A DNA stretch of 64,000 nucleotides, taken from the NCBI RefSeq assembly GCF_058153355.1, contig NZ_CM177019.1; one strand, given 5' to 3'. Below are positions 11,098 to 64,000 of this stretch, piece after piece. The position numbers and the translations under genes are program-made. The notes below the pieces were generated by a model. The model was not told the DNA's origin. It saw nothing but the letters and a program-made list of their open reading frames with translations, and did not search any database. How positions within the stretch are numbered: position 1 is the stretch's first letter; every line of letters starts with the position of its first letter.

Positions 11098-11144
11098 TTT
11101 CTTATTCCTCTTTAAACCTGTCTGAACCGTTAACAACCGCGCAA

Positions 11145-11181: not shown

Positions 11182-11242
11182 CTCATGCGTTCATGCACCA
11201 CTGGAAGATCTGAATGTCTTCCAGCACACATCGCCTGAAAGA

Positions 11243-28712: not shown

Positions 28713-29789
28713 CTGCTCTCCAATGACTAGTCTAAAAACTAGTATTAAGACTATCACTTATTTAAGTGATATTGGTTGTCTGGAGATTCAGGGGGCCAGT
28801 CTACACTTCCTCATGAACATCTGTTCAACGATCTTTCCTCTGTTGTGGATGCTCCTTGCTATCCTTTTTCACAACGGCTTGTTGATAAAAAAGTCACGGC
28901 AGAAATCCAGTGGGCATTAAAACACGATCCTTATTGCTGCGCTGATAATATGGACCGCAAACCTATTGAAGATGTGATCTTCGAAATTAATAACTTTATC
29001 TCGCTCGGTGGTCGCACCATTATTGATGCCACAGGGTCTGAGTCTATCGGACGAGATGCGCAGGCATTACGAGAAGTCGCATTAAAAACAGGTCTGAATA
29101 TTGTTGCTTCCTCCGGTCCCTACCTGGAAAAATTTGAAAACCAGAGAATTCATAAAACGGTTGATGAACTGGCGACAACGATCGATAAAGAATTGAATCA
29201 AGGGATTGGCGATACGGATATTCGTGCCGGAATGATCGGTGAAATAGGTGTTTCACCGACATTTACCGAAGCCGAGCATAACAGCTTGCGGGCTGCCTCG
29301 CTGGCACAGATTAACAATCCTCATGTGGCGATGAATATTCACATGCCGGGCTGGCTTCGTCGCGGTGATGAAGTACTCGACATTGTGTTAGGTGAAATGG
29401 GCGTCTCGCCAAATAAAGTCTCTCTCGCACACTCGGATCCGTCAGGAAAAGACGTGGCGTATCAGCGGAAAATGCTTGATAAAGGTGTCTGGCTGGAATT
29501 CGACATGATTGGCCTAGACATTACCTTCCCGAAAGAGGGAATAGCGCCAGGGGTGCAGGAGACTGCCGATGCCGTCGCTCATCTCATTGAGTTGGGATAC
29601 GCCGATCAGCTTGTTCTCAGCCACGATGTCTTCCTTAAACAAATGTGGGCTAAAAATGGCGGTAATGGCTGGGGATTTGTTCCAGATGTTTTTCTGGCCT
29701 ATCTGGCGGAGCGCGGCGTCGATAAAACGATCCTCAAAAAACTCTGTATCGATAATCCCGGACGATTATTGACCGCATAAAACCATTAT

Positions 29790-30150: not shown

Positions 30151-31907
30151 ACAGTGCAAAAGTGGCTCTTCCGCAACCTGGGTGAAGATTTTCATGCCAG
30201 TGGACTCATTACCCTCCGCCTAAGTAGTTCAAGTCCGGCTCGACCATACATCTGGCGTATCAGCACCTTCAGGCGATTTACATGACCTTCGACAACACCA
30301 GTACTCCAGCGACTGCTGATTGCCTCACATATAGCCGCAGCATCAGCTTCCATCCCCGCAGCTACGCACCGAAGTTCTGCTGAGCCGCTTTCGTGGACCC
30401 GAGTGAACCAGCTGCTTAGCTGTGATTTATTTTAGGTTTTCAGAATACGGTAGAACTCGAGTACCAGTTGCTGCGCTATTTTCAACTCCGGTTCTTTTTC
30501 ACACATCAGACTAATAAATCGGAAAGCATAATTTTCTTCACCCCTGATTATTCTCCAGGGCATCAACCAGCGGCTTACCCGGGACACTGAAGGAAGTCTT
30601 GCGGCAGTAGTAACCGGTGGGATCCAGCCTTTACGCCATTTGGCAACAGCATCCCTGACGATGGTTTCACTGCCTGTAACCCCCCTGGCCACCATTTCCC
30701 GCCATATCCGGCCGGAGTTATAATTACCACATTCTCGTTGCTCTTTTAACCACTCCCTCCATGGGTCCAGAAGCCCTCGCTTTGGAGGCCTAGTTGACAT
30801 TTCAGGGAATGTTCCTGAACCCACCCAGCGACTGACTGTCACTCGCGACAGGCCTGTAATACGGGATATTTCCCTGAAACTACATCCCTTGTTATGCAGG
30901 GCCATAACCTCTGTCCAACGCTGATGCCGTTTTTTGCGGATGTGCTGTTTAAGGCGTTCCAGACGACGGAGCGATGCTACAGGCACAGATATTTCTGGCT
31001 CAGGTGATTTCTTCAGTGATAACTCTCTGACAACAAGACGTATCAGAGGCATATGTCTGTACATCATTCGTTCAGGCTCATCACCAATATTTTTTAGCAG
31101 GTGCCATCGATCGGCCACCTGTCTGGCCTGAGGTGCACCTTCACGTGCTGCTGTCGCATAGACTCCACTGCGATCACGCGAGACAACCTGTATTTCCGGA
31201 TATTTTCTGAACCAGGTCGCCAGCGTACGCTGATCACGGCCGGGAAGCAGGACGAGGGGACGGTGAGTATCAAGATTGACTATTAACATACCGCAGCAGT
31301 GGCCCCGATGCCACGCCCACTCATCAATACCGACATGAGGCGCGCCTGACTGTTTCGTCTCCGGGGTATTGATAACCCTGCGAAGAAGAGTATCAGCACT
31401 GCAACGGAGACCCGCTGCCGTTGCAGCCCGTTTTCCAGCCTCACCTCCAGCTATTAATCCCAGTTGACGTTGTAAATTTTGTAACGCCTGTGAAGACTGC
31501 TGGTGTGAACCGGCGAAGGGAGCAAGCGACTCGGCAAAAATTTTACGTGAACAAGCCGGGTTACGGCAGTACCAGTGGCGGACGGAAAATACAAGCCATA
31601 GCGTCTGCCCTGAGCAGGGTAGATGCTGTATCCGGCGCCGACGACAACTATGAACAGAGTCGCTACGCTTAAAGCATTCAGGACATTGTGCTGTTTTGCG
31701 TTTTCCGTGGAGATGGAGGGTTATACCGTCAGAGCTAATAATTTGTCGACTGCATCGCCATCCGCAAGGTAACTGTAGAAGTGTCTTAAGAGAGTGCATT
31801 GCGTTGCCCATAACTTAAAACAGCTTAGATCCTTGTTCGCCAGAAAGTTTCATCCATTTTCTTCCACCCAGGTTGCGGAAGAACCACTTTTCATCCGTCG
31901 TTGACAG
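30142..31907 (-). mobile_element. ISL3-family insertion sequence with about 43-bp imperfect terminal inverted repeats
   Basis: Ends ctgtcacgaacagtgcaaaagtgGCTCTTCCGCAACCTGGGTG (30142-) and its inverted complement ending at 31907; encloses the transposase ORF. Confidence 0.75.
30432..31811 (-). CDS. ISL3-family transposase
   Basis: 459-aa ORF with N-terminal zinc-ribbon pattern (CPECFKRSDSVHSCRRRRIQHLPCSGQ...RHWYCRNPACSRKIFAE) typical of ISL3 transposases. Confidence 0.8.
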   Translation of the reverse strand: MGNAMHSLKTLLQLPCGWRCSRQIISSDGITLHLHGKRKTAQCPECFKRSDSVHSCRRRRIQHLPCSGQTLWLVFSVRHWYCRNPACSRKIFAESLAPFAGSHQQSSQALQNLQRQLGLIAGGEAGKRAATAAGLRCSADTLLRRVINTPETKQSGAPHVGIDEWAWHRGHCCGMLIVNLDTHRPLVLLPGRDQRTLATWFRKYPEIQVVSRDRSGVYATAAREGAPQARQVADRWHLLKNIGDEPERMMYRHMPLIRLVVRELSLKKSPEPEISVPVASLRRLERLKQHIRKKRHQRWTEVMALHNKGCSFREISRITGLSRVTVSRWVGSGTFPEMSTRPPKRGLLDPWREWLKEQRECGNYNSGRIWREMVARGVTGSETIVRDAVAKWRKGWIPPVTTAARLPSVSRVSRWLMPWRIIRGEENYAFRFISLMCEKEPELKIAQQLVLEFYRILKT

Positions 31908-33723: not shown

Positions 33724-35248
33724 GGTTAAATCTCCGTATGGTTCATACGGAATAGCCACGTCGTAAAAAATGCGCAGAGTCCCTGAAGTGACCTCCGGCA
33801 GGACACTGTCTCAGGCACTCTGTGATACCCCAACTATCGTCTCCGGACTGACGGTTGAATTTTCAGCGTTGTTTTTTTAATGTAAAAAACCGGTTACGGG
33901 TAAGGCTGTGAGGAGGGAGTGATGGTGATACGCAAAAAGAAGTGCAGGGACTGTGGAAACGCGATTACTCATAATACATGTTGCCCGTATTGTGGTTCTG
34001 TCGACCCCTTCGGCTATTACCGGAATACAGACCGTATCGTTACCATACTGCTGGCACTGATTATTGTGGTCCTGCTGACTACTGTCAGCGTCAGTCAGTG
34101 TGTATATACTGTGTAGCTGGTGAGATAACGGTTCATGTATCCCCTGAGCTGACAGTGTACCGGGTATATTAAGCGTAACCGACAGGTTCTCCTTCATACC
34201 ATATTAAATTTTTCCAGGTATTGCCGCTGCCTTATTTCGTCCCATACAGGAAAACTCGTCTGGGTTTCTGACAAATACGCGAAACTCACAGCCCCTCAAT
34301 ATCAACCACACGCTGTAAGCCGGTAATACCTGAAAATCAGCCTATTACCGCCCGCGCCTCCGTTACCGAACGCTCAGGTGACCAGACTGAAGCCCAGCAC
34401 GCACTCGTAAAATTTGCGGTCAGTTCCGTCAGTCAGTGGGCAACCGCAGAGTTACGGGCTTCCAGGTCCACAGGAGTGAGTCTATAACGCGTGTGGGAAA
34501 TCATTTTTTCTGGCGTTGACAGAACGCCTTACGGGCTGCCACTTACCCGGTGTCCCGCAATACAGCCTTAGTGTTCCGTTATCGGGGATCAGGACGCACC
34601 GCAACAACCGGGGAAGTATTTCTGGTTAGAGCTGTGTCAAGAGGGATTTCTCAGCCCCTCACTCACCGGCTCAGTCTCAGGGCAGAAGCATTAATACGCT
34701 CAGTTCATGTCTTATACAGGAATGGGCATGGGGGGAGCTGGCGTGTCACTGCTGATTTTACGCATCAGCGTTCATGTATCTGCACTCTGATACAGAATGC
34801 TTCACAGCGCTCTGTTACCGGAGAGATTTACTCTCTTAGGTTATTCTGGCAAATCCTTTACGTTACTCTCTGATGACTTCTTATATTTATAATACCAATC
34901 AGACAACCTTATCCCATCGGTGATATCAGTCTCCTGCTCGCCAGGAACGGGCTGACTCACTGTAACCACCTCCGAAAACAACTCTGCAATTATCAGAACG
35001 CCTGCTTCTCTCCCTGTCCTCACGAAAACTATCCCCTCTTTATCGCGCGTGCGTGCGGAAGCATCTTTTCGCAACAACCCCCCCGGGATTCCGCTACGGC
35101 TCTGCCATCGCAATCCCCCCGTTTATCTCCGGACAGCCACATTCCCGATTATTTTTTACGTTTCTCCCCGGTTGTTATGCCGGTGAAGGTGGCGCGCTGT
35201 TTTCATGACCACACCGGCTGGTTTAACAACATCCGGAGGAACATTCTC

Positions 35249-35455
35249 ATGGCTACCCCAGTTTCGCTGATGGATGACCAGATGGTCGACATGGCGTTTA
35301 TCACTCAACTGACCGGCCTAACCGATAAGTGGTTTGACAAACTCATCAAAGATGGGGGCTTTCCTGCGCCCATCAAAATGGGGCGCAGCTCCCGCTGGCT
35401 GAAAAGTGAAGTGGAAGCCTGGCTGCAGGCGCGTATTGCACAGTCCCGTCCGTAA
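35249..35455 (+). CDS. AlpA-family prophage regulatory protein (excisionase-like HTH)
   Basis: MATPVSLMDDQMVDMAFITQLTGLTDKWFDKLIKDGGFPAPIKMGRSSRWLKSEVEAWL; GGAGGA RBS 8 nt upstream. Confidence 0.8.
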   Translation: MATPVSLMDDQMVDMAFITQLTGLTDKWFDKLIKDGGFPAPIKMGRSSRWLKSEVEAWLQARIAQSRP

Positions 35456-35548
35456 TTTTTAACCACTAACCCTTCGCCCACAGCAGACGCAATCTCCGGC
35501 CTGCCGGCGGCGCTCTGCTGCCTGTTATCCCCCGTGAGGAATATGAAA

Positions 35549-36151
35549 ATGAAACAACAGTATCAGACCCGTTACGAGCTGCTCCATGAAAACTACCAGA
35601 AATGGCTGACCGGCTTCACCCGGCACGCCGTATCATGGGGCGTGTGTCATCCGAATATCTACTATTTCCATAATCTGACGCCCGGGTGGGTGTCATTCAA
35701 TGGCGAAAAACCGGAGATTGCCATCGTTCCCCAGAGTCTGCACCGGCTGATTTATGGTCCGGACAAACGGAGCTCCCCGTCCCTGGATGATGATCTGGTG
35801 GTGAATTTATGCACCAGCGAACACCTGCTGGTTCATCATCCGATGCTGGAAGGGATCCTGCTGTCTGAATGTGAGCGCCTGAAGCAACATTCTCTGGCAA
35901 ACAAACTGATCAGCCTCTTCCGTCAGTTTGGCGGCACGGAGTTACGTCTCAAACTGGTCTGGCTCTGCTGGCTTGACTTAATGACCGGAAACAGCCTTGA
36001 CGACTGGACGAAAAACCTGAAACACAAATCAGAAAAAGATCTGGAGCAATGGATCATTGCACGTCAGGGTCAGAGTGAACCACTGACAAATCTGATGGAT
36101 CAGTACGTGCTTATGGCATACCGTACATCGGTTGATGCCGCTCACAGTTGA
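35549..36151 (+). CDS. Hypothetical island protein
   Basis: About 200-aa ORF directly downstream of the alpA-like gene; no family recognised. Confidence 0.5.
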   Translation: MKQQYQTRYELLHENYQKWLTGFTRHAVSWGVCHPNIYYFHNLTPGWVSFNGEKPEIAIVPQSLHRLIYGPDKRSSPSLDDDLVVNLCTSEHLLVHHPMLEGILLSECERLKQHSLANKLISLFRQFGGTELRLKLVWLCWLDLMTGNSLDDWTKNLKHKSEKDLEQWIIARQGQSEPLTNLMDQYVLMAYRTSVDAAHS

Positions 36152-37012
36152 TGTCTGAGAACCACAGGCTGGCAGCAGAAAACCAGCCCTGTGGTAAAAT
36201 ACAGTAATAGCGGCGTACATCAGGCACGCCGCTCACTCGTCCACAGATCATATACGTCATTATACTGCGCGATAACGGAGGGCTTCAGCACCCGGTCATT
36301 TCTGAGCGGGTATGAATACCATTGATGATGCGAAGCAGCCACGGGCAGAAACGTTCTTCACAACCAGGTGCCTCCATCTTCACTGCAGTCTGAATGTGCC
36401 GGCTTGTTATCCACCAGAAATGGTATGCTCCGGTACATGCATACCCCGGAGACTATAAACGCACTGAATCATAGCCTCCCACCTCAGCAGGAGGCAGTCA
36501 GCTTTCAGGCGGAAAAACGTTGCAGTTAAAGATCGTGAGAATCGCTGTTTCGTTGCATAGCAACCCGAACAGTTGTAGTGAAACATTTTACCTGCATCAG
36601 CACATGGTCAGGCGCCGTCTGTATGGCGTGGAATACTGATGTTTCGGCTGATGGCAAGCCTCATTCTCTGTGGAAACAGGGGCGCGCATTAGCTTCTCAA
36701 CCAGAGAGTGTCACAAAGACAAATATTGCTGAAAATCGCATTCATCGTTCAGGCGTGAATGCCCGGAGACAAAAGCCGCTGTCCACACAGTCCCCCTCTG
36801 ACCTGAACAAAAAGCATACACACAACAGGCTCACCTGACCCCGAAAAACCATAACTTCAGCAATACCAGTGACACCAGCACGTTACCTCAGTGCCACATC
36901 TTCAGACCGCGATCAATCTGAAATGTGACTATCGGGGCAATATCCCTGCTTTGTGGTACACGATAACCAGAAAACATCCCCTGAACCGCCAGCCAGAAAG
37001 ACTGGCCACAAA

Positions 37013-38970
<1,958 letters not shown>

Positions 38971-40404
38971 AAGGGGTAAGCTGAAATCGTTTATGGATTA
39001 CATCGACATATGCCTGGCAGAGAATGTCCGGAATGACGAGGTTATCTTTGCGGAGATTAAGGCAATGGTATACGGGCCGACGTTCCATGCCGCGTTACTA
39101 CATTCAGCCCGGACGTAAAATGCGCCCGTCAAAAAGAACGGTTCGCTTCGAAACTCAGCCAGGATACCACCTCTCCGCCACACCCGAGAAGAAGTTGATA
39201 TGGTGGTTGCCGGACAACAGCGCTCCTGGATTGACTGCTGCATCACTCAACCACGCTGAATATCAAAGGAGAGCGTTACCGGTTAAAAGAGAAACGTAAA
39301 GCTGTGGTGATGACCCAAAACGCAACGCCTGTCAGTGAGGATGAAATGGTGAAAAGCGGACAGCATCAGTAACGGAAGTATCTTAGCGGGTACGAAAATG
39401 GCAGGATCGTGACATTGACAGAATATCTCCTGATCATCCTGAATGACTGCAGTTGCTGTAGAAAAGTAAGCTGTCTCCACCCACGGCACCACTTAACAGG
39501 CATTCCGTAACTTCCCCCAGACTTACTATGACGCATTATCGGTGCACTGAAAACGGGAGAGTGCGCTTAAAACCGCAGACCGCATGCGGGTGTTACTGCA
39601 TGACAGTCTGGCCGTATTGTGAGATGTCGGCAGGAACCGATGTCCGCGCAGGGGGGAACTTCCTGCAGTACCTGACGCTTCAAATGGTATTAACCGTAGG
39701 GTGTTGTTGGTTCCGGATCGCGGAAATGGGAGCACAGGTCTGCTACGGGGTGTACCTCTGACAGTATATCCGGCTCGCTCATCTGACAGCCTCTCTCCCG
39801 GAAAAGACCAAAAATGAGATCGTCTCCTCAACAGCAGAGAAGAGGTCTTGACAGACAGGCTACATTGCATACGATTTATGAAGAAAAAGACAGCAAATAT
39901 GGAGGTTATAGCGGAGAATACCCTACGAAATTCCTATGAAAAACGATTGAAAAAAATATCAAATTCGATTCGTTTTTATATGCTTTTTGGGAGCGTGGCG
40001 ATGACGAACTGTTGCATGTGCAGAGGAGAATGCACCCGGAAGCACCAGAATCATCCAGAAAGGCAGAACGATTACGCATCAAACCAGGAGACAGCAATAT
40101 CAAGGTAATATACTGATTTAAAATGAATTTACAGCAATACGTAAAAACATTTTTTACTTAAAGGAGACAGATGCGCTGAAGAGAGTGCAGGTATTTTTAT
40201 ATAAAAATGAGAAGTTTACGGGATGTATATCCGGCACACTATGACCGGAGAATATCAGTCAAGCTTAAAAAGACAATAAATACAGTGAGTTAAATACACA
40301 GAGAAAACGTAGTATCAGAGGGTACATCTGTAAGCGTCTTATCAGGACCGTCTGGCAAATTCCCGATGCTTTGGACAAAGTATCCACCACTAAATTAATA
40401 GTGG

Positions 40405-40833
40405 GTGATAAAAATGTCAGATATACAAAAAAATGCCTCTCCGGGAAGGCCTAAAGGGTGCCTGAATTATCCTCCTGAATTCAAACAACGACTCATAGAA
40501 GCATCATTCCAGCCAGGTGTTTCAATTTCCAGACTGGCCCTGGACAATGGTATTAATGCCAATCTGTTGTTCAAATGGCGTCAGAAATGGCGGCAGGGGA
40601 AGATAAAATTGCCATCATCAGAATCAGGCAGAGAATCTCAGTTAATTCCTGTCACTATTGATGCCCAACTCCCAACTGCTCCGGCTAATGAGCCACTGAC
40701 CGCAAGACCGTCAGTAACACCGGAAATACACAGCATCTCCTGTGAGATTACGTTCAGAAACGGCACCCTTCGGTTGAACGGGGCAGTGAATGAAAATCTG
40801 CTGTCCTTGCTTATACAGGAGCTGAGACGGTGA
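40405..40833 (+). CDS. IS66 family accessory protein TnpA (Orf1)
   Basis: 142-aa ORF, first gene of the IS66 module. Confidence 0.85.
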   Translation: MIKMSDIQKNASPGRPKGCLNYPPEFKQRLIEASFQPGVSISRLALDNGINANLLFKWRQKWRQGKIKLPSSESGRESQLIPVTIDAQLPTAPANEPLTARPSVTPEIHSISCEITFRNGTLRLNGAVNENLLSLLIQELRR

Positions 40834-41177
40834 TATCTCTCCCTGCAGGTTCGCGTATCTGGCTGGTTGCAGGTATCACCGATATGCGAAATGGCTTTAA
40901 CGGCCTGGCCTCAAAAGTTCAGAACGTCCTGAAGGATGACCCGTTCTCCGGGCATCTGTTCATCTTCCGCGGACGCCGGGGTGACCAGATAAAAGTGTTG
41001 TGGGCTGACAGTGACGGACTGTGCCTCTTCACCAGACGCCTGGAGCGGGGCCGCTTCGTCTGGCCGGTCACCCGTGACGGCAAGGTGCACCTTACTCCGG
41101 CCCAGTTATCCATGCTTCTTGAGGGCATCGACTGGAAACACCCGAAACGAACGGAACGCGCTGGCATCCGCATATAA
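40830..41177 (+). CDS. IS66 family TnpB (Orf2)
   Basis: 115-aa ORF MISLPAGSRIWLVAGITDMRNGFNGL typical of IS66 Orf2. Confidence 0.88.
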   Translation: MISLPAGSRIWLVAGITDMRNGFNGLASKVQNVLKDDPFSGHLFIFRGRRGDQIKVLWADSDGLCLFTRRLERGRFVWPVTRDGKVHLTPAQLSMLLEGIDWKHPKRTERAGIRI

Positions 41178-41196
41178 CCCGTTGTAAAGTGAGGAT

Positions 41197-42768
41197 ATGG
41201 ACACCTCACTTGCTCATGAGAATGCCCGCCTGCGGGCACTGTTGCAGACGCAACAGGACACCATCCGCCAGATGGCGAAATACAACCGCCTGCTCTCACA
41301 GCGGGTGGCGGCTTATGCTTCCGAAATCAACCGGCTGAAGGCGCTGGTTGCAAAACTGCAGCGCATGCAGTTCGGTAAAAGCTCAGAAAAACTTCGTGCA
41401 AAAACCGAACGGCAGATACAGGAAGCACAGGAGCGAATCAGCGCTCTTCAGGAAGAAATGGCGGAAACGCTGGGTGAGCAATATGACCCGGTACTGCCAT
41501 CTCCCCTGCGCCAGTCTTCAGCCCGTAAACCGTTACCTGCCTCACTTCCCCGTGAAACCCGGGTCATCCGTCCGGAAGAGGAATGCTGCCCGGCCTGTGG
41601 TGGCGAACTCAGTTCTCTGGGATGTGATGTGTCAGAGCAACTGGAGCTTATCAGCAGCGCCTTTAAGGTTATCGAAACACAACGTCCGAAACTGGCCTGT
41701 TGCCGGTGCGACCATATCGTGCAGGCTCCGGTGCCTTCAAAACCCATTGCACGCAGTTATGCCGGAGCGGGGCTTCTGGCCCATGTTGTCGCTGGAAAAT
41801 ATGCAGACCATCTGCCGTTATACCGCCAGTCAGAAATATACCGTCGTCAGGGCGTGGAGCTGAGCCGTGCCACACTGGGGCGCTGGACAGGTGCTGTTGC
41901 TGAACTGCTGGAACCGCTGTATGACATCCTGCGCCAGTATGTGCTGATGCCCGGTAAAGTCCATGCCGATGATATCCCCGTTCCGGTCCAGGAGCCGGGC
42001 AGCGGTAAAACAAGGACTGCCCGGCTGTGGGTCTACGTTCGTGATGACCGTAACGCCGGTTCGGAAATGCCTCCGGCGGTCTGGTTCGCGTACAGCCCGG
42101 ACCGGAAAGGTATCCATCCACAGAATCATCTGGCCGGTTACAGCGGAGTGCTTCAGGCCGATGCTTACGGTGGTTACCGGGCGTTGTACGAATCCGGCAG
42201 AATAACGGAAGCCGCATGTATGGCTCATGCCCGGAGAAAAATCCACGATGTGCATGCAAGAGTGCCCACCGACATCACCACGGAAGCCCTGCAGCGTATC
42301 GGTGAACTGTATGCCATCGAGGCAGAGGTCCGGGGCTGTTCAGCAGAACAGCGTCTGGCGGCAAGAAAAGCCAGAGCCGCGCCACTGATGCAGTCACTGT
42401 ATGACTGGATACAGCAACAGATGAAAACACTGTCGCGTCACTCGGACACGGCAAAAGCGTTCGCATACCTGCTGAAACAGTGGGATGCACTGAACGTGTA
42501 CTGCAGTAATGGCTGGGTGGAAATCGACAACAACATCGCAGAGAACGCCTTACGGGGAGTGGCCGTAGGCCGGAAAAACTGGCTCTTCGCGGGTTCTGAC
42601 AGCGGTGGTGAACATGCTGCGGTGTTGTACTCGCTGATCGGCACATGCCGTCTGAACAATGTGGAGCCAGAAAAGTGGCTGCGTTACGTCATTGAACATA
42701 TCCAGGACTGGCCGGCAAACCGGGTACGCGATCTGTTGCCCTGGAAAGTTGATCTGAGCTCTCAGTAA
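41197..42768 (+). CDS. IS66 family transposase TnpC (Orf3)
   Basis: 523-aa ORF with leucine-zipper N-terminus, CxxC zinc motif, DDE domain, C-terminus ...[10 protein letters not shown]. Confidence 0.9.
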
Positions 42769-42967
42769 ATATCAATACGGTTCTGGCGAGCCGCTTACGT
42801 ACATCTTACAACAGAGACTGAATTTCCGGTTTTTCATAACCGGCGCATTCCGGAAAGTGCAGGCGGCCCGGAGGTTTTCTGACGCCACTACCTGGTAGAT
42901 TGTTCTGTACATCATGTACGGAGGTTTTTGTTTGCTTTTTTAAAATCTGCAAATGTGAGAAAAGCAG

Positions 42968-54490: not shown

Positions 54491-54552
54491 AAAAATCTAA
54501 GCTCAGAAAACGGATTAAAGTAAAAATCTAAGCTCAGAAAACGGATTAAAGT
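54491..54552 (+). repeat. Perfect 31-bp tandem duplication (2 copies) abutting the left end of IS110-family copy 2
   Basis: aaaaatctaagctcagaaaacggattaaagt at 54491-54521 and again at 54522-54552. Confidence 0.9.
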
Positions 54553-54560: not shown

Positions 54561-56070
54561 ATGACTTTCCGTGAGACAGATGCTGGCCAACGTGGGATAT
54601 TTAACGCGGGTTAACATCGTTGTCAGAGCCGCATGGGTGAGCTGTTGCTACACCCCGGTATTTCCACCACGGAGGCCAGCATGAACAACAATAACACATT
54701 GTACGTCGGGTTAGATGTTCACAAAGAATCGATTACTGTCGCTTATGCTATCAATTCAGAACCTGTTGAACTGATGGGTAAAATTGGCACATCACCTACT
54801 GATATTCAGAATCTTTGTAAACGTCTCAGGTCAAAGTCATCGCAGGTCAGTATCGTTTATGAAGCGGGGCCCTGTGGTTATGGACTTTATCGTCGGCTGG
54901 TGAAATCCGGTTTTGACTGCATGGTCTGCGCCCCCTCACTTATCCCGAAAAAACCGGGGGAGCGGGTTAAAACCGATCGCCGTGATGCCATCAGACTTGT
55001 GCGTTCACTGCGTGCAGGAGATCTTTCTGCTGTCTACGTACCCGGCATTGAAGATGAGGCATTCCGGGATTTGGCCCGGGCATGGGCATCTGCCCGCGAT
55101 GATTTACGGCATGCAAGGCAACGTCTGAAATCGTTTCTTCTGGTTCATGGGGTCCATTATGTCGGGCGAGCAGATTGGGGCCCTGCACACCGACGCTGGC
55201 TCAGCAAATACTCATTCGAAAGTCCCTGGCGACAATTAGCTTTTGACGAACACCGTCGTACAATAGAAGACCGGCAGGCACAATGTGAACGGCTGGAATC
55301 CGCCCTGAAGGAGGCCGTTACCGAATGGAGGCTGTATCCGGTAGTAGAGGCGCTGCAAGCCATGCGAGGGATTCAGTTTATTACTGCGGTTGGATTAATT
55401 TCTGAACTGGGTGATCTGACCCGTTTTGAACATCCACGACAACTGATGTCATGGTTTGGTATCACGCCATCAGAATATTCATCGGGTGGAAGCAGACATC
55501 AGGGCAGCATTACCAAAGCCGGAAACAGCTATGCCAGAAAGCTATTGGTCGAGGCAGCGTGGAGTTACCGTCATCCGGCACGCATCAGTCCGGCAATACA
55601 AAAAAGGCAGGAAAATTTACCCCGCCCCGTCATTGACAGAGCATGGGATGCTCAACTCAGGCTTTGTAAGAGGTATCGAAAACTTCAGGCCAAAGGAAAG
55701 AATGTCAATATTACAATTGTTGCTGTTGCACGTGAGCTGGCGGGTTTTATCTGGGATATGGGCCGAATAGCAATGTCTGTCGCACAACAACCACAATGTC
55801 ACAAATAAAAAATGAGAATAACCAGTTCCCTGAAGGCGACGTAGCCCGGTACAAGAGTAACCCACGTTAGCGCTTGGCGACGGCGGAACAAAGCTGATTC
55901 GCGACGTAAGAAAGTGGCAGGCTCATATGACGGACCTCTGTAATGCGGTATCCAACCCGCGAATATCAGCGTGATTCACCGTCGGATTTACTGCTACGTC
56001 GCCCTCAGGGAATTAAACCTAAAAAGAAAATCGTCAAAATTAGAGATTCCGGTTTGACACGGAAAGTCAT
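54561..56070 (+). mobile_element. IS110-family insertion sequence, copy 2 (inverted relative to copy 1)
   Basis: Ends atgactttccgtg (54561) and cacggaaagtcat (to 56070); internal sequence identical to copy 1 over all inspected ORFs. Confidence 0.85.
54681..55808 (+). CDS. IS110-family DEDD transposase/recombinase
   Basis: Same 375-aa protein as copy 1; GGAGG RBS at 54671. Confidence 0.88.
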   Translation: MNNNNTLYVGLDVHKESITVAYAINSEPVELMGKIGTSPTDIQNLCKRLRSKSSQVSIVYEAGPCGYGLYRRLVKSGFDCMVCAPSLIPKKPGERVKTDRRDAIRLVRSLRAGDLSAVYVPGIEDEAFRDLARAWASARDDLRHARQRLKSFLLVHGVHYVGRADWGPAHRRWLSKYSFESPWRQLAFDEHRRTIEDRQAQCERLESALKEAVTEWRLYPVVEALQAMRGIQFITAVGLISELGDLTRFEHPRQLMSWFGITPSEYSSGGSRHQGSITKAGNSYARKLLVEAAWSYRHPARISPAIQKRQENLPRPVIDRAWDAQLRLCKRYRKLQAKGKNVNITIVAVARELAGFIWDMGRIAMSVAQQPQCHK

Positions 56071-56740
56071 ATCAGCGTTAATGGAGAATCATATTGATGC
56101 TTATTTATTGGTGAGAACTACGTTCCATGGCAGGAGTTCATCAATACGGTTGGAAGGTTATTCCGGCAGTACGCTCAGGATATGGCGCAGATACGCTTCC
56201 GGATCAATGTCGTTCAGAAGGCAAGTGCCGATAAGCCCATACAACAGTGCACTGCGCTCGCCGCCGAAGAACATAAAGTTTTTATTTCCGAGACAGATGG
56301 CACAAAGGGCTTTTTCCGCGGCATTATGTCTGCCTCCGCCTGACCGTCAACACTGTAATAACAGAGTGCGCCCCACTGATTCAGTACACAGCTGAACCAT
56401 TCTCCCAGTCTGGATTTTTGGATAGCGTGGCATTTTTCTCCACCATGCATGCAGTGAGTCCAGTAACAGTTTGCTCTTCTTCTGCCTGACCACAAGATGT
56501 GCTGGACTGGTAAACGATGGGGATACCTGCTTACGCGAGAGCAATAAGTGGCTGGCCACAATTCTCGGTACAAAACTCTGCTGAATAGCAGCGATTTTCC
56601 CAGCGTGGTGCGTCGTTTGCATTTTACTGGTTCTAAGTTAACAATTATCTGTTCACTAATGACTACTCTAAAAACTTGTATCAGGACTATCACTTATTTA
56701 AGTGATATTGGTTGTCTGGAGATTCAGGGGGCCAGTCTAT
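56071..56740 (-). mobile_element. Composite IS remnant: IS66-like tnpC 3' fragment plus IS2-like terminal fragment
   Basis: 56071-56400 encodes an IS66 TnpC C-terminal tail on the minus strand, about 85-90% identical to the remnant at 22600-22770; 56650-56740 is an IS2-type terminal repeat (GGGGGCCAGTCTA). Confidence 0.65.
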
Positions 56741-58012
56741 AAACTTTTTACAAAAGGATGAATGCAGAAGGTTACTCTAATGGCCAGAGTGATGACAATG
56801 ATGGTCAGACGTTGACCTGCAGAAACTGCATTTTAATTGGTCTATAAAGTCTGCAAGAGGAATCAGGGTCAGATCAGTGAGTCTTATCGCGGCCCGAAGC
56901 TATGACTGAAAGAAGGCTGGATACAGAATTGCAACAATTTGGCAATGTCAGAACACAGAAGCTTTGCAAGCAGGTGAAAGGTTATGTCTAGCAAAAGGAG
57001 TATATCAGAATACATCTACTGATGTACAAAACACAACAATAGCTTCATGATATATAAATACGTGATGACGAGTGGTACTCCGCATGGTTATTTAACTTCT
57101 CAGCACCACTAATGATCCTGAGCAACTTCGTATTTGGGCCATTGCCATGGAGTAGAAAGCTGTGTCTGAGAATGCAGAATTTGAGAAAAGAATTCGCTTT
57201 CTTGGAGAGCTTCTGAAAATGGCACGCTAACAACGTTTTGTTAAAAAATGTGAATCACTTGCCGGGGCTGCATTTTCTATTCGAGGAGAATGTTGACGTA
57301 GATATTACAGAAATCTCAGCGCATCAGGATAAACTGCTACCTTAGGTCAACCACCAAAAGAAAATACAATACGTCCAGTTTGTATGCCTTTAATAACACA
57401 TCTTTTAAATGTTGAAGAATTATCCCGCCTGCTGAAGAACGTTGCTCTGAGTGTGATAAACCTTTTTATTCTTGATGATGTCAGCGAGAAGATGGAATAT
57501 ATCCCCGACTGGGTCGTGGTTACCCGGTTAAACATCTGGTGGCGCTAATAAATCTGGCAAGTCACATTCTGTTGAATGCTGTGACAGTGCCTTACCGAGA
57601 GAGCGAAATTGTGGTGTTCTAGTGCATAGTCGCCACCATTCCGGATAATTCTATTGCGTTGTTTTACAAGTTCTTTTACAGCGCAGATCTGTCGCTGACG
57701 TTGAATCAATAGCCTGGATTTCAGAACACAATGCCCGTTTGCTGGTTGGTCCGGCAGTAGCATTAATTCATTATCTGAATGAAATGTGTCAATCCACAGA
57801 AACCGCTGTCAATGACACATTTTGTCGGACGTTAACACGAGAAAGTCTGGCTATTCCGTAATGCCATCTTATTTCGTAATGGATTGAGAATGCTGGATTT
57901 TTAATTATATTACGCGCAGTATTAATCGCGTAAATGTTTTGCGGTCAGCAACGGTGGGGGATCCATTGTTCTGTTCAATGAATACCATCATACATTTGAA
58001 TCAGGAGTCGGT

Positions 58013-58558
58013 ATGATGATTTTGGTGACGGGGGGCGCACGGAGCGGGAAGAGTCGCCACGCAGAGGCGCTTATTGGGGACTCTTCACAGGTTCTGTATA
58101 TCGCTACCTCGCAAATCCTTGATGATGAGATGGCTGCACGGATAGAACATCATCGGCAAGGCCGCCCGGCGCACTGGCGCACAGTGGAGCGCTGGCAACA
58201 TCTTGATGAATTAATTCATGCAGACATTAACCCGAATGAGGTTGTGTTGCTGGAATGCGTTACCACAATGGTGACTAATCTGTTGTTTGATTATGGCGGC
58301 GATAAAGACCCTGATGAATGGGATTATCAGGCGATGGAACAGGCGATTAATGCTGAGATTCAGTCGTTGATTGCTGCCTGCCAACGTTGCCCCGCAAAGG
58401 TTGTATTAGTGACTAACGAAGTGGGAATGGGGATTGTGCCGGAGAGTCGTCTGGCACGACATTTTCGTGATATTGCCGGGCGGGTAAATCAGCAGTTGGC
58501 CGCTGCGGCAAATGAAGTATGGCTGGTGGTTTCGGGTATTGGAGTAAAAATCAAATGA
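58013..58558 (+). CDS. cobU: Adenosylcobinamide kinase / adenosylcobinamide-phosphate guanylyltransferase
   Basis: 181-aa [21 protein letters not shown] with P-loop. Confidence 0.93.
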
Positions 58559-59322
58559 GTAAATTATTTTGGGCGATGCTCTCATTTATTACGCGTCTGC
58601 CTGTACCGCGTCGCTGGTCCCAGGGACTGGATTTCGAGCATTATTCTCGCGGTATTATTACTTTTCCTTTAATTGGATTATTGCTTGGCGCGATTAGCGG
58701 GCTGGTCTTCATGGTGCTGCAGGCATGGTGTGGCGTACCACTGGCGGCACTGTTTAGCGTACTTGTGCTGGCGCTGATGACCGGGGGATTCCACCTGGAC
58801 GGCCTCGCCGATACCTGTGATGGCGTATTTTCTGCACGTAGCCGCGATCGCATGTTGGAAATCATGCGTGATAGCCGTTTAGGCACCCATGGCGGTCTGG
58901 CATTGATTTTTGTTGTACTGGCAAAGATTCTGGTATTAAGCGAGTTGGCTCTGCGTGGCGAACCGATCCTTGCATCGCTGGCGGCAGCATGTGCGGTCAG
59001 CCGCGGGACTGCCGCATTATTGATGTATCGTCATCGTTATGCGCGGGAAGAAGGGCTTGGCAATGTGTTCATTGGCAAAATTGATGGGCGACAAACCTGC
59101 GTCACACTCGGCTTAGCCGCTATTTTTGCTGCCGTATTATTGCCGGGTATGCATGGTGTGGCTGCTATGGTGGTGACGATGGTGGCGATTTTCATCCTCG
59201 GTCAGCTTCTCAAACGTACGCTGGGCGGGCAAACCGGCGATACGCTGGGAGCTGCTATAGAGCTTGGTGAACTGGTCTTCCTGCTGGCACTGCTATCTGG
59301 CACTGCTATAAAGAGACGTGAC
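58555..59322 (+). CDS. cobS: Cobalamin synthase; no stop codon, reads through in frame into cobT
   Basis: [17 protein letters not shown]...; ORF tool reports one 627-aa ORF 58519-60402; 13-bp direct repeat CTGGCACTGCTAT at 59284-59296 and 59297-59309 sits where the stop is expected. Confidence 0.8.
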
Positions 59323-60402
59323 ATGCAAACACTTGCCGATTTACTGAATACGATCCCTGCTATCGATCCTGCCGCTATGTCGCGTGCACAACGGCATATT
59401 GACGGGTTACTCAAACCTGTTGGTAGCCTGGGAAGGCTGGAGGCGCTTGCCATACAACTGGCGGGAATGCCGGGGTTGAATGGCATACCGCATGTGGGCA
59501 AAAAAGCGGTACTGGTTATGTGTGCCGATCACGGCGTCTGGGAGGAAGGGGTCGCTATTTCCCCAAAAGAAGTGACAGCCATTCAGGCTGAAAATATGAC
59601 CCGCGGAACAACCGGCGTGTGTGTGCTGGCAGCACAAGCGGGCGCTAACGTCCACGTAGTTGATGTTGGTATTGATAGTGCTGAGCCTATCCCCGGGCTT
59701 ATCAACATGCGTGTCGCACGAGGTAGCGGCAATATTGCTTCAGCTCCGGCAATGAGTCGCCGTCAGGCTGAAAAGTTGCTTTTGGACGTCATATGTTATA
59801 CGCGGGAGCTGGCAAAAAACGGTGTCACGCTGTTTGGTGTAGGTGAACTGGGGATGGCAAACACGACACCGGCAGCGGCAATAGTCAGCACAATCACTGG
59901 CCGGGATCCTGAAGAAGTGGTTGGGATTGGCGCAAACCTGCCGACAGATAAACTGGCTAATAAAATTGATGTTGTGCGCCGGGCGATTACGTTGAATCAA
60001 CCAAATCCGCAGGATGGCGTTGATGTCCTGGCAAAAGTGGGTGGATTTGATTTGGTCGGAATGGCTGGCGTGATGTTAGGCGCTGCTTCCTGCGGTTTAC
60101 CCGTGTTGCTGGATGGATTTCTTTCTTATGCTGCCGCGCTCGCAGCCTGCCAGATGTCTCCTGCAATCAAACCGTATCTCATTCCTTCTCACCTGTCGGC
60201 AGAAAAAGGGGCGCGTATTGCGCTGTCGCATTTGGGGCTGGAGCCTTATCTCAATATGGAGATGCGTTTAGGTGAGGGGAGTGGCGCAGCTCTGGCGATG
60301 CCCATCATCGAAGCTGCCTGTGCGATATATAACAACATGGGCGAACTTGCTGCCAGTAATATTGTTCTACCGGGGAATACGACTTCTGATTTGAACAGTT
60401 AA
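59323..60402 (+). CDS. cobT: Nicotinate-nucleotide--dimethylbenzimidazole phosphoribosyltransferase
   Basis: Region beginning [40 protein letters not shown], 359 aa to stop at 60402. Confidence 0.9.
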
Positions 60403-60466
60403 AAACGAAAAGTCTGATAAAAGCTATACTTAACGGATAGCTTTCGCGACTTAGGAAAGGGACATG

Positions 60467-61399
60467 ATGCGTCGTGTAAATATTTTTTGCTCATTTGCTC
60501 TGCTTTTTGCCAGCCAAAATAGCCTGGCGGTAACTTATCCATTACCTCCAGAGGGTAGCCGTTTAGTGGGGCAGTCGCTTACTGTAACTGTTCCTGATCA
60601 CAATACTCAGCCGCTGGAGACTTTTGCCGCACAATACGGGCAAGGGTTAAGTAATATGCTGGAAGCGAATCCGGGCGCTGATGTTTTTTTGCCGAAGCCT
60701 GGCTCACAACTCACCATTCCGCAGCAACTGATTTTGCCCGCCACTGTTCGTAAAGGGATTGTGGTTAACGTCGCTGAAATGCGTCTTTATTACTATCCGC
60801 CAGACAGTAATACAGTGGAAGTCTTTCCTATTGGTATCGGCCAGGCTGGGCGAGAAACCCCGCGTAACTGGGTGACTACCGTTGAACGTAAACAAGAAGC
60901 ACCAACCTGGACGCCAACGCCGAACACCCGGCGCGAATATGCGAAACGAGGGGAGAGTTTGCCCGCATTTGTTCCTGCGGGGCCCGATAACCCCATGGGG
61001 CTGTACGCGATTTATATTGGCAGGTTGTATGCCATCCACGGTACCAATGCCAATTTTGGTATTGGGCTCCGTGTAAGTCAGGGCTGTATTCGTCTGCGTA
61101 ATGACGATATCAAATATCTGTTTGATAATGTTCCTGTAGGCACTCGTGTACAAGTTATTGATCAGCCAGTGAAATACACAACGGAACCGGATGGTTCAAA
61201 GTGGCTGGAAGTTCATGAGCCGCTGTCGCGCAATCGTGCAGAATATGAGTCTGACCGAAAAGTGCCATTGCCGGTAACCCCATCTTTGCGGGCGTTTATC
61301 AACGGGCAAGAAGTTGATGTAAATCGCGCAAATGCTGCGTTGCAACGTCGATCGGGAATGCCTGTGCAAATTAGTTCTGGTTCAAGACAGATGTTTTAA
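60467..61399 (+). CDS. ldtA: L,D-transpeptidase
   Basis: ORF 60464-61399; signal peptide, LysM-like and YkuD catalytic domain (HGT...SQGCIRL). Confidence 0.9.
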
Positions 61400-61421
61400 G
61401 AGCGTTGATAATTAGAAAGTA

Positions 61422-61450
61422 AAAAGCCTGCTCGAAAGCAGGCTTTTTTG
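61422..61450. terminator. Hairpin terminator between ldtA and tRNA-Asn
   Basis: AAGCCTGC tcgaaa GCAGGCTT followed by T-run. Confidence 0.7.
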
Positions 61451-61454
61451 AATT

Positions 61455-61530
61455 TGGCTCCTCTGACTGGACTCGAACCAGTGACATACGGATTAACAGT
61501 CCGCCGTTCTACCGACTGAACTACAGAGGA
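61455..61530 (-). tRNA. asnV: tRNA-Asn (GTT anticodon)
   Basis: Minus-strand 76-nt sequence TCCTCTGTAGTTCAGTCGGTAGAACGGCGGACTGTTAATCCGTATGTCACTGGTTCGAGTCCAGTCAGAGGAGCCA. Confidence 0.95.
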
Positions 61531-61856
61531 ATCGTGTGAACGGGGCGCATATTAATGGCAGTGCATGGTGATGTCAAAGGGTGAAATGCATTTTTTTGTT
61601 TGTTTGCTGCCAATTTCAACAAAGTGGTGAGCTTTCAATCTTATTGGGTAATGAACCATCGTGGTGCATACCCTCCTTTTATAGGGCAGGTGAATGCGAC
61701 TGCAGATAAAAAGAGCCAATGACGAATCTATCATAATCTCTTATTTGACAGTTGGTTAGCTTGCGCATCAACGCCAAAATAGAACTGGCAAGCATCTTGC
61801 ATTCTGGTTGTAAGTAATGGCGGCACTTGGGCCGACTCTTAAAAACCGGAGGCAAC

Positions 61857-62774
61857 ATGAACTTCAGACGCCTGAAATACTTCGTAAAAATTGTAGATAT
61901 TGGTAGCCTGACCCAGGCTGCTGAAGTATTGCATATCGCACAACCAGCGCTCAGCCAGCAGGTTGCCACACTGGAAGGTGAGTTTAATCAACAACTTTTG
62001 ATTCGCACAAAACGGGGCGTTACGCCAACTGACGCCGGAAAAATTCTCTATACCCATGCGCGGGCCATTTTACGTCAGTGTGAGCAGGCCCAACTGGCGG
62101 TGCATAACGTTGGTCAGGCATTATCGGGGCAAGTCTCGATTGGCTTTGCGCCAGGAACCGCTGCGTCATCCATCACCATGCCCTTATTACAGGCGGTTCG
62201 CGCTGAATTCCCGGAGGTCGTTATCTATCTTCATGAAAATAGCGGTGCAGTGCTTAACGAAAAACTGATAAATCACCAACTCGATATGGCGGTGATTTAT
62301 GAGCATTCCCCTGTGGCTGGTGTATCCAGTCAGGCTTTACTGAAAGAAGATCTTTTCCTGGTAGGGACTCAAGATTGTCCGGGGCAAAGCGTTGATGTTA
62401 ATGCTATTGCGCAAATGAACCTCTTTCTTCCCAGTGATTACAGTGCTGTTAGACTTCGTGTTGATGAGGCTTTTTCCCTACGGCGACTCACGGCAAAAGT
62501 CATTGGTGAAATTGAGTCTATTGCCACGCTTACCGCAGCGATTGCCAGCGGCATGGGCGTTGCAGTATTACCCGAATCGGCCGCGCGTTCGTTATGTGGC
62601 GCAGTAAACGGGTGGATGTCACGCATTACCACACCTTCCATGAGTCTCTCTTTGTCATTAAATTTACCCGCCAGAGCGAACTTATCACCACAGGCACAGG
62701 CAGTGAAAGAGTTGTTAATGTCAGTGATGAGTTCTCCAGTGATGGAAAAAAGGCAGTGGCAATTGGTGAGCTAA
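61857..62774 (+). CDS. nac: Nitrogen assimilation control protein (LysR family)
   Basis: Start MNFRRLKYFVKIVDIGSLTQAAEVLHIAQPALSQQV; ORF 61827-62774. Confidence 0.88.
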   Translation: MNFRRLKYFVKIVDIGSLTQAAEVLHIAQPALSQQVATLEGEFNQQLLIRTKRGVTPTDAGKILYTHARAILRQCEQAQLAVHNVGQALSGQVSIGFAPGTAASSITMPLLQAVRAEFPEVVIYLHENSGAVLNEKLINHQLDMAVIYEHSPVAGVSSQALLKEDLFLVGTQDCPGQSVDVNAIAQMNLFLPSDYSAVRLRVDEAFSLRRLTAKVIGEIESIATLTAAIASGMGVAVLPESAARSLCGAVNGWMSRITTPSMSLSLSLNLPARANLSPQAQAVKELLMSVMSSPVMEKRQWQLVS

Positions 62775-62875
62775 GCGTTATATCGGGATGGAATAAGATG
62801 CGGGTTTTTATTATTTGTTATGCCGGGCATTAGACTTTAACAATAACGGAAAATCTGAACTGCCCGGAGTTTACC

Positions 62876-63826
62876 GTGAATTTCCAACAACTAAAGATAA
62901 TCCGCGAGGCTGCACGTCAGGATTACAACCTGACAGAGGTTGCGAATATGCTTTTTACCTCACAGTCCGGCGTCAGCCGTCATATTCGGGAACTGGAGGA
63001 TGAACTTGGCATCGAAATATTTGTTCGACGAGGTAAGCGACTGCTGGGCATGACTGAACCGGGCAAAGCATTACTGGTCATTGCAGAACGTATTCTGAAT
63101 GAAGCCAGTAATGTTCGTCGGCTTGCAGACCTGTTTACCAACGATACGTCTGGCGTTCTCACTATTGCAACGACGCATACTCAGGCACGTTATAGTTTGC
63201 CAGAGGTCATTAAATCTTTTCGCGAACTTTTCCCGGAGGTTCGGCTCGAGCTAATCCAGGGGACGCCACAGGAAATTGCGACGTTGTTGCATAATGGTGA
63301 AGCTGATATTGGTATCGCCAGCGAGCGTTTGAGTAATGACCCGCAGCTCGTCGCCTTCCCGTGGTTTCGTTGGCACCATAGTTTGCTTGTTCCACTCGAT
63401 CATCCCTTGACGCAAATTACACCATTGACGCTGGAATCAATAGCGAAGTGGCCGTTAATCACTTACCGACAGGGGATTACGGGGCGCTCACGTATTGATG
63501 ACGCATTTGCCCGCAAAGGTTTGCTGGCAGATATTGTATTAAGTGCGCAGGATTCTGATGTCATTAAAACCTATGTTGCTCTTGGGCTTGGGATCGGAAT
63601 AGTTGCCGAACAATCCAGCGGTGAACAAGAGGAAAAGAATTTAATCCGCCTGGATACGCGGCATCTTTTTGATGCTAATACTGTCTGGTTGGGACTGAAG
63701 CGAGGACAACTTCAGCGTAACTATGTCTGGCGCTTTCTGGAACTTTGTAATGCAGGGCTTTCAGTTGAGGATATCAAGCGGCAGGTGATGGAAAACAGTG
63801 AAGAGGAAATTGATTATCAGATATAG
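62876..63826 (+). CDS. cbl: CysB-like LysR-family regulator
   Basis: 316-aa ORF MNFQQLKIIREAARQDYNLTEVANMLFTSQSGVSRHI; conserved position between nac and tRNA-Asn. Confidence 0.88.
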   Translation: MNFQQLKIIREAARQDYNLTEVANMLFTSQSGVSRHIRELEDELGIEIFVRRGKRLLGMTEPGKALLVIAERILNEASNVRRLADLFTNDTSGVLTIATTHTQARYSLPEVIKSFRELFPEVRLELIQGTPQEIATLLHNGEADIGIASERLSNDPQLVAFPWFRWHHSLLVPLDHPLTQITPLTLESIAKWPLITYRQGITGRSRIDDAFARKGLLADIVLSAQDSDVIKTYVALGLGIGIVAEQSSGEQEEKNLIRLDTRHLFDANTVWLGLKRGQLQRNYVWRFLELCNAGLSVEDIKRQVMENSEEEIDYQI

Positions 63827-63828
63827 CA

Positions 63829-63856
63829 AAAAGCCCGCTATAAAAGCGGGCTTTTC
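63829..63856. terminator. Hairpin terminator after cbl
   Basis: AAAGCCCGC tataaaa GCGGGCTTT. Confidence 0.65.
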
Positions 63857-63863
63857 AGAAATT

Positions 63864-63939
63864 TGGCTCCTCTGACTGGACTCGAACCAGTGACATACGG
63901 ATTAACAGTCCGCCGTTCTACCGACTGAACTACAGAGGA
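63864..63939 (-). tRNA. asnU: tRNA-Asn (GTT anticodon), second copy
   Basis: Same 76-nt minus-strand sequence as 61455-61530. Confidence 0.95.
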
Positions 63940-64000
63940 ATCGCTGTTGAGGCACATCTTAACGGCGAAAAATCTTTTGTCAAACCCGATTTTTAATTTT

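Follow-up and report, generated by a model that had tools for sequence, protein, structure and literature searches.

The cobS and cobT genes in the 64-kb stretch of DNA analyzed here (the window) form a single open reading frame of 615 codons, in which a short tandem duplication has removed the cobS stop codon and joined cobS in frame to cobT. With a probability of roughly four in five, we regard the duplication as genuine, very recent and private to the isolate, and the resulting allele as a neutral or mildly deleterious lesion and not as an adaptive fusion enzyme.

Results

The duplication and the fused reading frame

The 13-bp unit CTGGCACTGCTAT is present twice in tandem at 59284-59309, as stated in a preliminary description of this DNA; both the sequence and Tandem Repeats Finder (period 13, 2.0 copies, 100% match, score 52) bear this out. 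Perfect non-trivial two-copy tandem repeats with a period of at least 8 occur only four times in the whole 64-kb window, and those with a period of at least 13 are expected by chance about 0.001 times per 64 kb. No microhomology was found at the duplication boundaries when the bases were read directly from the sequence. Simple slippage via microhomology was considered as the origin of the repeat and found to be unsupported, the CTGCT repeats nearby being 9 bp and not 13 bp apart. The features of the locus are as follows:

58013..58558, + strand: cobU, adenosylcobinamide kinase/guanylyltransferase, 181 aa, intact (Pfam PF02283, 217 bits, full length)
58555..59295, + strand: cobS-derived part, 247 codons, ending at L247 (TIGR00317 match, allele match, motifs)
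59284..59296, + strand: first copy of the 13-bp unit CTGGCACTGCTAT (sequence, Tandem Repeats Finder, alignment)
59297..59309, + strand: second copy of the 13-bp unit (sequence, Tandem Repeats Finder, alignment)
59296..59322, + strand: linker SGTAIKRRD, nine new codons (codon table)
59309..59311, + strand: former cobS stop TAA, out of frame (codon table)
59312..59322, + strand: native cobT translation-initiation region with a weak Shine-Dalgarno-like AGAGA (alignment)
59323..60402, + strand: cobT-derived part, 359 codons and TAA (NF000996 match, allele match, structure alignment)

The TGA of cobU overlaps the ATG of cobS (ATGA); the cobU label is also found in the annotation of matching records. 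According to the codon table, the L247 codon of cobS is CTA (59293-59295), and it is followed by the new codons TCT GGC ACT GCT ATA AAG AGA CGT GAC, which are made up of the final base of copy 1, all of copy 2, and what used to be the spacer between the genes, and then by the cobT ATG at 59323. The old cobS stop TAA now has a frame offset of +1 and is unread. In the ORF list, a single frame (58519/58555 to 60402) extends across cobS and cobT; counted from the cobS ATG at 58555 to the TAA at 60400-60402, it encodes 615 aa, and by both the list and the codon table ribosomes starting at cobS encounter no stop until that of cobT. The fused product consists of CobS (247 aa), the linker SGTAIKRRD (9 aa), and CobT (359 aa), all complete. 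The +1 shift into cobT and the 615-aa ORF had been predicted in the preliminary description and are thus confirmed, with both domains at full length. The distance between the cobS stop and the cobT ATG, given there as 13 bp, has to be corrected to 11 nt, as measured in single-copy genomes (cobS end 8243, cobT start 8255).

Integrity of the two halves

The CobS half matches TIGR00317, the model of the adenosylcobinamide-GDP ribazoletransferase family, over positions 1-241 of 241 (302.2 bits, cut-off 110) and PF02654 over positions 1-207 of 207 (182.9 bits). It retains the motifs HxDxxxDxxD (residues 80-89) and GxxGDxxG (residues 225-232; here GQTGDTLG), which are described as the conserved motifs of the cytoplasmic loops of CobS (PMC8092220). 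For the CobT half, the models of the NaMN:DMB phosphoribosyltransferase family NF000996, TIGR03160, and PF02277 were used. Residues 257-604 of the fused protein cover positions 1-347 of 350 in NF000996 with 468.3 bits (cut-off 306), and TIGR03160 is matched with 392.7 bits (cut-off 319.3). In addition, CobT residues 1-352 align with the S. enterica CobT crystal structures 1jh8/1d0s with E = 5e-180. The CobS half and the CobT half are each an exact common wild-type E. coli allele, found on at least 1000 contigs. At the sequence level, then, nothing appears to be wrong with cobS or cobT except the missing stop.

Proteins of the CobS family end right after the last membrane helix (...FLLALL, residue 247) with a free C-terminus that faces the periplasm, whereas 368 more residues follow in the fused product. 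The preliminary description had allowed for reference CobS proteins that normally extend beyond LLALL; this is not what the alignment shows: in 22 of 22 aligned enterobacterial orthologues, the protein ends at the same column, and the last ~27 residues form the most conserved block of the protein.

The cobT ATG and the 26 nt upstream of it are the same as in the wild type by alignment, and this ATG now lies inside a longer ORF, the upstream part of which encodes a membrane protein with a predicted periplasmic end. The calculated Shine-Dalgarno duplex energy is -2.9 kcal/mol for cobT, compared with -5.9 for cobS and -6.9 for cobU, and a search with Rfam revealed no regulatory RNA near the locus. 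Since the Shine-Dalgarno sequence of cobT is weak, wild-type expression of cobT is probably coupled to termination at the stop codon of cobS. Such coupling would be lost together with the stop that formerly lay 11 nt upstream, and some free CobT may still be produced from the ribosome-binding site of cobT, which is weak but unaltered.

These observations bear on the possibility that the change is functionally silent, with the fusion being degraded or cleaved and with enough free CobT and enough CobS activity remaining for a wild-type phenotype. The unchanged initiation region of cobT would allow this, as its predicted accessibility is similar in the two forms (opening energy of 8.4 kcal/mol in the wild type and 7.2 kcal/mol in the duplicated allele), and the catalytic motifs are all intact. 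On the other hand, every CobS molecule must bear the extension because the sole in-frame stop is that of cobT, and the extension follows directly on a C-terminal helix that is the most conserved segment of CobS and ends at L247 in all of the aligned orthologues. The weak cobT Shine-Dalgarno sequence, with the suggested dependence on the lost cobS stop, argues in the same direction, and we consider a silent outcome very unlikely.

Distribution of the allele among sequenced genomes

Alignment with the closest complete genomes revealed a clean 13-base insertion with identical flanks, and one of the two copies is an insertion relative to all single-copy genomes examined. FDAARGOS_943, the closest complete record for the region, is annotated with a cobS of the usual 247 aa and with cobT as a gene of its own, and shows a 13-base gap relative to the window. 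In this genome and in E. coli VL7S7 (stool, Thailand), the single copy leads to ...ELVFLLALL followed by TAA, exactly as had been anticipated for an unduplicated gene. VL7S7 shares 100.0% identity with positions 1-12000 of the window and differs over positions 56074-64000 by only 2 SNPs and one 13-bp gap. The duplication is also absent from GCA_015332025.1 (7,550 columns) and SRR8656992 (4,770 columns), both of which align to the window with 0 mismatches apart from the 13-bp gap. Overall, the single-copy sister sequences have 0-3 mismatches to the window locus.

In a broader survey, a 96-bp query centered on the duplication had matches in 5,413 of 5,426 complete E. coli genomes; the two-copy form was not observed among the top-ranked matches listed, each of which spans 83 bp in two pieces. 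The exact junction gave 0 matches in a one-genome-per-species collection (100,044 species) and 0 matches in the JGI metagenomes. At the protein level, no protein covering more than 58% of the fused ORF was found among 5.8 billion clusters, and the fused protein, with either of its two possible starts, had no exact match in a 15-billion-protein cluster collection. The rare ldtA allele of the window was found in ten places, nine of which, GCA_015332025.1 and SRR8656992 among them, have separate cobS and cobT genes. The tenth is the Logan contig SRR31441161_127, which is 100.000% identical to positions 56711-61480 of the window (4,770 bp), both copies included, and encodes the identical 615-aa protein. 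This is the only contig encoding the fusion among 153 billion indexed gene positions.

The preliminary description had presented a strain-specific fusion and an artefact of slippage or sequencing as alternatives. If the duplication were a sequencing or assembly artefact, the genome would contain one copy of the 13-mer and separate cobS and cobT genes, and the uniqueness of the allele, which has no counterpart among the matches listed in the 5,413 complete genomes or in the locus-identical sisters, would be expected. However, the same 26-bp structure is present in SRR31441161, a short-read assembly produced by a different pipeline, whose contig breaks at repeats, and the remainder of the locus has no other indel relative to its relatives. 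An independent short-read assembly with the same allele makes an assembler artefact unlikely. Furthermore, neither short-read nor long-read sequencing usually produces errors in the form of perfect 13-bp tandem duplications where the sequence is free of repeats and homopolymers. Overall, we regard an artefact as very unlikely, and the balance between the two alternatives now leans toward a real, strain-specific change that SRR31441161 carries and the locus-identical sisters do not. We conclude from these comparisons that the duplication is in all likelihood really present in the DNA that was sequenced, from one isolate or one very tight clone. If SRR31441161 represents the reads behind the window assembly, the two assemblies would not be biologically independent, and the mutation could have originated in laboratory culture.

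The same data suggest when the duplication arose. Because sisters without any mismatch at the locus are nevertheless single-copy, it would have arisen after the split from these sisters, that is, very recently. A recent event is also indicated by the two halves, which are exact common wild-type alleles with full-length matches to the domain models. Thus, the allele has the form of a stop-loss lesion, a small frame-altering indel private to a tip of the tree: it is a 13-bp insertion in a single sample.

Genomic context and host lineage

The gene order in the window is gnd-ugd-wzzB-his operon ... cobU-cobS::cobT-ldtA-tRNA-Asn-nac-cbl-tRNA-Asn. The WzzB protein of the window corresponds to an allele that one source names for E. 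coli O28ac, which is a classic enteroinvasive serogroup. Insertion sequences crowd the middle of the window (two copies of ISSso6 and representatives of IS3, ISL3, IS21, and IS66), and the VL7S7 annotation contains several pseudogenes in the neighboring region. Expansion of insertion sequences and loss of core metabolic capabilities were reported for enteroinvasive E. coli (EIEC) lineages (PMC7373316). Based on the name of the WzzB allele and the content of insertion sequences, the host probably belongs to an IS-rich, EIEC O28ac-like lineage of E. coli.

Search for natural CobS-CobT fusions

The fused sequence was compared with 1.84 billion representative proteins by an exhaustive HMMER search, of which the best 150 matches, with a floor of 228 bits, were listed, and 30 long matches among them were scanned with Pfam. 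No intact CobS-CobT protein is present among these best 150 matches, and distant fusions below 228 bits may exist. Many of the long matches are tandem CobT-CobT proteins, and in others CobT is joined to CobU, CbiC, an ABC ATPase, GNAT, Maf, CbiG, or a nitroreductase. The reverse order, CobT followed by CobS, was also considered, since it would fit the cytoplasmic N-terminus of CobS. Matches of 600-690 aa in three stretches were initially taken as candidates for natural CobT-to-CobS fusions and were rejected when Pfam identified them as tandem double-CobT proteins.

The only two-domain match has CobT followed by CobS and is encoded on one metagenome contig (P0420). Both of its domains are truncated (positions 1-281 of 329 in DBI_PRT and 1-151 of 207 in CobS), its connectors are of low complexity, and its end overlaps a gene on the opposite strand. 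This candidate was therefore rejected as an evolved fusion and attributed to read-through after a frameshift. Among the sporadic lesions of the cobS-cobT locus is P0129, in which read-through joins CobU to CobS (CobU::CobS) on a contig of 2.1 kb. In the literature, we found no described fusion of the CobS ribazoletransferase with the CobT phosphoribosyltransferase; the matches obtained there concern the unrelated cobaltochelatase CobS/CobT or other fusions.

Membrane topology of CobS and expected fate of the fused product

The consequences of the fusion depend on the side of the membrane at which CobS ends, an aspect that the earlier interpretation left out of account. A C-terminal BlaM fusion of E. 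coli CobS confers ampicillin resistance, and its authors assign an N-in/C-out topology to the protein, for which TOPCONS predicts seven transmembrane helices (PMC4604451). In the model of S. enterica CobS derived from PhoA/LacZ fusions, residues 225-232 form cytoplasmic loop 6 (PMC8092220), which implies that one last membrane segment follows. No solved CobS structure was found by sequence search, and when the CobS model was compared with the PDB by Foldseek, the only matches were other helical bundles at chance level (all E > 0.1); the topology is therefore derived from the literature, the number of helices, and hydropathy. The AlphaFold2 model of CobS (22 orthologues; mean pLDDT 70.8, pTM 0.75) contains seven long helices at residues 37-59, 61-75, 109-133, 138-157, 178-195, 200-223, and 228-246. 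The last of these has a pLDDT of 82-95 and is preceded by a four-residue turn after helix 6. Hydropathy and charge distribution of CobS agree with this seven-helix picture. All these sources give CobS seven predicted membrane helices with the N-terminus inside and the C-terminus in the periplasm, the C-out assignment being based on predictions, one published model, and one reporter study whose constructs had an artificial N-terminal fusion.

CobT and the substrates that it makes for CobS are cytoplasmic (PMC8092220). Given a periplasmic C-terminus of CobS, the fusion would place CobT on the side of the membrane where it does not belong, and a working bifunctional enzyme is unlikely. An evolved ('Rosetta-stone') fusion recurs in independent genomes or lineages, and its junction fits the topology and location of both parts. 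Here, the fusion does not recur in the collections searched and the junction does not fit the predicted topology, and therefore the allele does not appear to be a member of an evolved fusion family.

The most plausible sequence of events can be outlined as follows. The insertion shifts the frame by +1 right behind the last codon of CobS, ribosomes pass the TAA unread, and a CobS-linker-CobT polypeptide of 615 aa and ~66 kDa would be synthesized. Two fates of this predicted product may be envisaged. In the first, CobT would be dragged across the membrane like the reporter domains, away from its substrates, and would be useless. In the second, the K-R-R of the linker, which would act on helix 7 according to the positive-inside rule, together with the bulky domain would block the insertion of this helix and damage CobS. 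Either fate should impair cobinamide salvage, which is predicted to be reduced or lost. In E. coli, cobinamide salvage is dispensable when MetE or imported B12 is available, and its loss should therefore cost little. Most likely, then, this is a neutral or mildly deleterious lesion affecting a salvage pathway that the cell can do without, in a lineage whose genes are decaying.

An adaptive bifunctional enzyme, in which CobT is tethered to CobS and channels alpha-ribazole phosphate within a hard-wired complex for nucleotide loop assembly, has to be weighed against this scenario. Since the Escalante-Semerena laboratory has proposed that CobS anchors a multienzyme complex that includes CobT (PMC8092220, PMC8749415), a working tethered enzyme is conceivable. 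Both domains are complete and wild type, natural CobT proteins accept N-terminal fusion partners, and the K-R-R of the linker could hold the junction in the cytoplasm. By analogy with these partners, which are soluble, the CobT half could be active if helix 7 stays cytoplasmic. However, the C-terminus of CobS is predicted to be periplasmic, and the 1.84 billion representative proteins contain no intact CobS-CobT protein among the best matches, the only two-domain candidate being frameshifted and truncated. Moreover, the allele occurs in a single sample and is missing from locus-identical sisters, and hence nothing indicates that it has spread or been selected; its pathway is one that is not needed when MetE or imported B12 is at hand. 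We therefore judge an adaptive enzyme to be highly improbable. The chance is equally slight that the fusion is stable and active because K-R-R retains the junction, perhaps together with the last helix of CobS, on the cytoplasmic side.

Significance

Our verdict on the allele is that of an ordinary stop-loss read-through, a mutation that is recent, private, and located in a pathway the cell can dispense with, and it is of little consequence for biology at large. The duplication provides a further example of how a short tandem duplication erases a stop codon and welds neighboring operon genes. For genome annotation, it should be taken into account that pipelines may label the allele either as a 615-aa bifunctional enzyme or as a cobS pseudogene followed by cobT; neither of these names should be passed on as that of a family. 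With its two complete wild-type halves, the allele makes the isolate a natural construct in which the C-terminal topology of CobS and the proposed CobS-anchored complex could be studied, a use of modest value. If the fusion did prove to be stable and active, it would be a natural demonstration of CobT working while covalently tethered to the membrane synthase. In this case, it would support a membrane-anchored complex for nucleotide loop assembly and would indicate that the last CobS helix is topologically flexible.

Comparison with known systems

The closest reference is the wild-type cobU-cobS-cobT operon for nucleotide loop assembly in E. coli and Salmonella enterica, which has the same genes, order, and neighbors (ldtA, tRNA-Asn, nac, and cbl). 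In the wild-type operon, cobS and cobT are separate and 11 nt apart, whereas here they form one 615-aa ORF through the 13-bp duplication.

A second lesion of the same locus is represented by a 367-aa protein (P0002) from 'Shigella sonnei' GCA_014424105.1 and SRR7204243, which is also encoded by one ORF with CobS and CobT Pfam domains. Like the allele described here, it results from a small mutation in the E. coli/Shigella group and was found in very few assemblies. In contrast to the present allele, in which both enzymes are complete, it is the product of an in-frame internal deletion from about residue 141 of CobS to about residue 133 of CobT that destroys both enzymes.

Natural multidomain CobT proteins (CobU-CobT, CobT-CobU, CbiC-CobT, ABC ATPase-CobT, CobT-CbiG, CobT-nitroreductase, and CobT-CobT) resemble the fusion in that CobT is covalently joined to another protein of the cobamide pathway. 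Their identified partners are all soluble, some of them being located N-terminally to CobT, whereas membrane CobS occurs as a partner only in the frameshifted metagenome protein P0420.

The nearest experimental analogues are the engineered proteins D94N-CobS-BlaM and D94N-CobS-EGFP (PMC4604451), in which a soluble domain was likewise placed on the C-terminus of CobS. The domain added to CobS showed periplasmic behavior there, with BlaM being active and the EGFP signal serving as the 'out' baseline. The natural fusion differs from them in that a cytoplasmic enzyme is appended after a K-R-R linker and that it has no N-terminal helper fusion.

Expression of cobT and detection of the fused protein

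The cobT initiation region of the window (59312-59322) has a predicted Shine-Dalgarno pairing energy of -2.9 kcal/mol, which is much weaker than the values for cobU (-6.9 kcal/mol) and cobS (-5.9 kcal/mol). Translation of cobT would thus normally seem to rely on coupling to termination at the cobS stop codon, located 11 nt upstream. For the fused CobS-CobT protein, the exact-sequence cluster look-up returned no match, yet the gene-position index places this protein on the Logan short-read contig SRR31441161_127. Since the contents of these indexes do not fully agree, a negative result from the exact-sequence cluster look-up is no proof of absence.

Sequence variation and rearrangements relative to VL7S7

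The window was compared with the near-identical E. coli genome VL7S7. At position 60173 (cobT codon 284), the window carries the consensus CCG (Pro), whereas VL7S7 has CTG (Leu); hence, it is VL7S7, rather than the window, that has the rare CobT allele. Owing to a SNP at position 61154, the ldtA allele of the window is rare (found in 22 contigs), and it was used as a lineage marker.

The insertion sequence (IS) elements of the window are as follows:
23033-24208, minus strand: ISSso6 (IS110-family) transposase gene
54633-55808, plus strand: ISSso6 (IS110-family) transposase gene
27484-28757, 30432-31811, 37079-38880 and 41197-42768; also 34876-39352 and 40329-42799: IS3, ISL3, IS21 (istA/istB) and IS66 elements

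The two ISSso6 genes, in opposite orientations, flank a segment of ~31 kb (24286-56229) that is inverted in the window in the alignment with VL7S7, and this arrangement suggests a recent IS-mediated inversion. A 31-bp unit, AAAAATCTAAGCTCAGAAAACGGATTAAAGT, adjoins ISSso6 as a perfect tandem duplicate (54491-54552). The duplicate sits exactly at the inversion breakpoint (alignment breakpoints 54522/54523) and probably represents flanking sequence found at both IS copies that was brought together by the inversion. For the stretches 34876-39352 and 40329-42799, the alignment found no counterpart in the compared VL7S7 region, so the IS content varies even between these two near-identical genomes.

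The RNA features of the window are ordinary for this chromosomal region, and its two tRNA-Asn(GTT) genes are identical to each other:
11144-11267, minus strand: His operon leader
14006-14080, plus strand: sRNA STnc240
61455-61530, minus strand: tRNA-Asn(GTT)
63864-63939, minus strand: tRNA-Asn(GTT)

Other CobS and CobT variants in public data

An independent cobS-cobT lesion is present in the 'Shigella sonnei' assembly GCA_014424105.1 (locus L002, 6001-7104) and likewise in SRR7204243 (locus L003). The encoded protein, P0002, is a 367-aa in-frame deletion product, in which CobS ~1-141 is joined to CobT ~133-359. On the contig, pdu genes are also located upstream, which is unusual for E. coli/Shigella. 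Further rare aberrant CobS products in public assemblies (P0129, P0163, P0217, and P0225), among them CobU::CobS read-throughs and forms of CobS that bear a foreign tail at the N- or C-terminus, come in most cases from short contigs and are probably mostly frameshifts or assembly errors.

Among the representative proteins matched by the fused query, CobT is also found in fusions with CbiG (P0364) and with a domain of the nitroreductase family (P0351). Many other proteins of 600-740 aa, including P0320, P0324, P0327, P0339, and P0376, contain two tandem DBI_PRT (CobT-like) domains, an architecture that recalls the ArsA/ArsB heterodimer with its two subunits fused.
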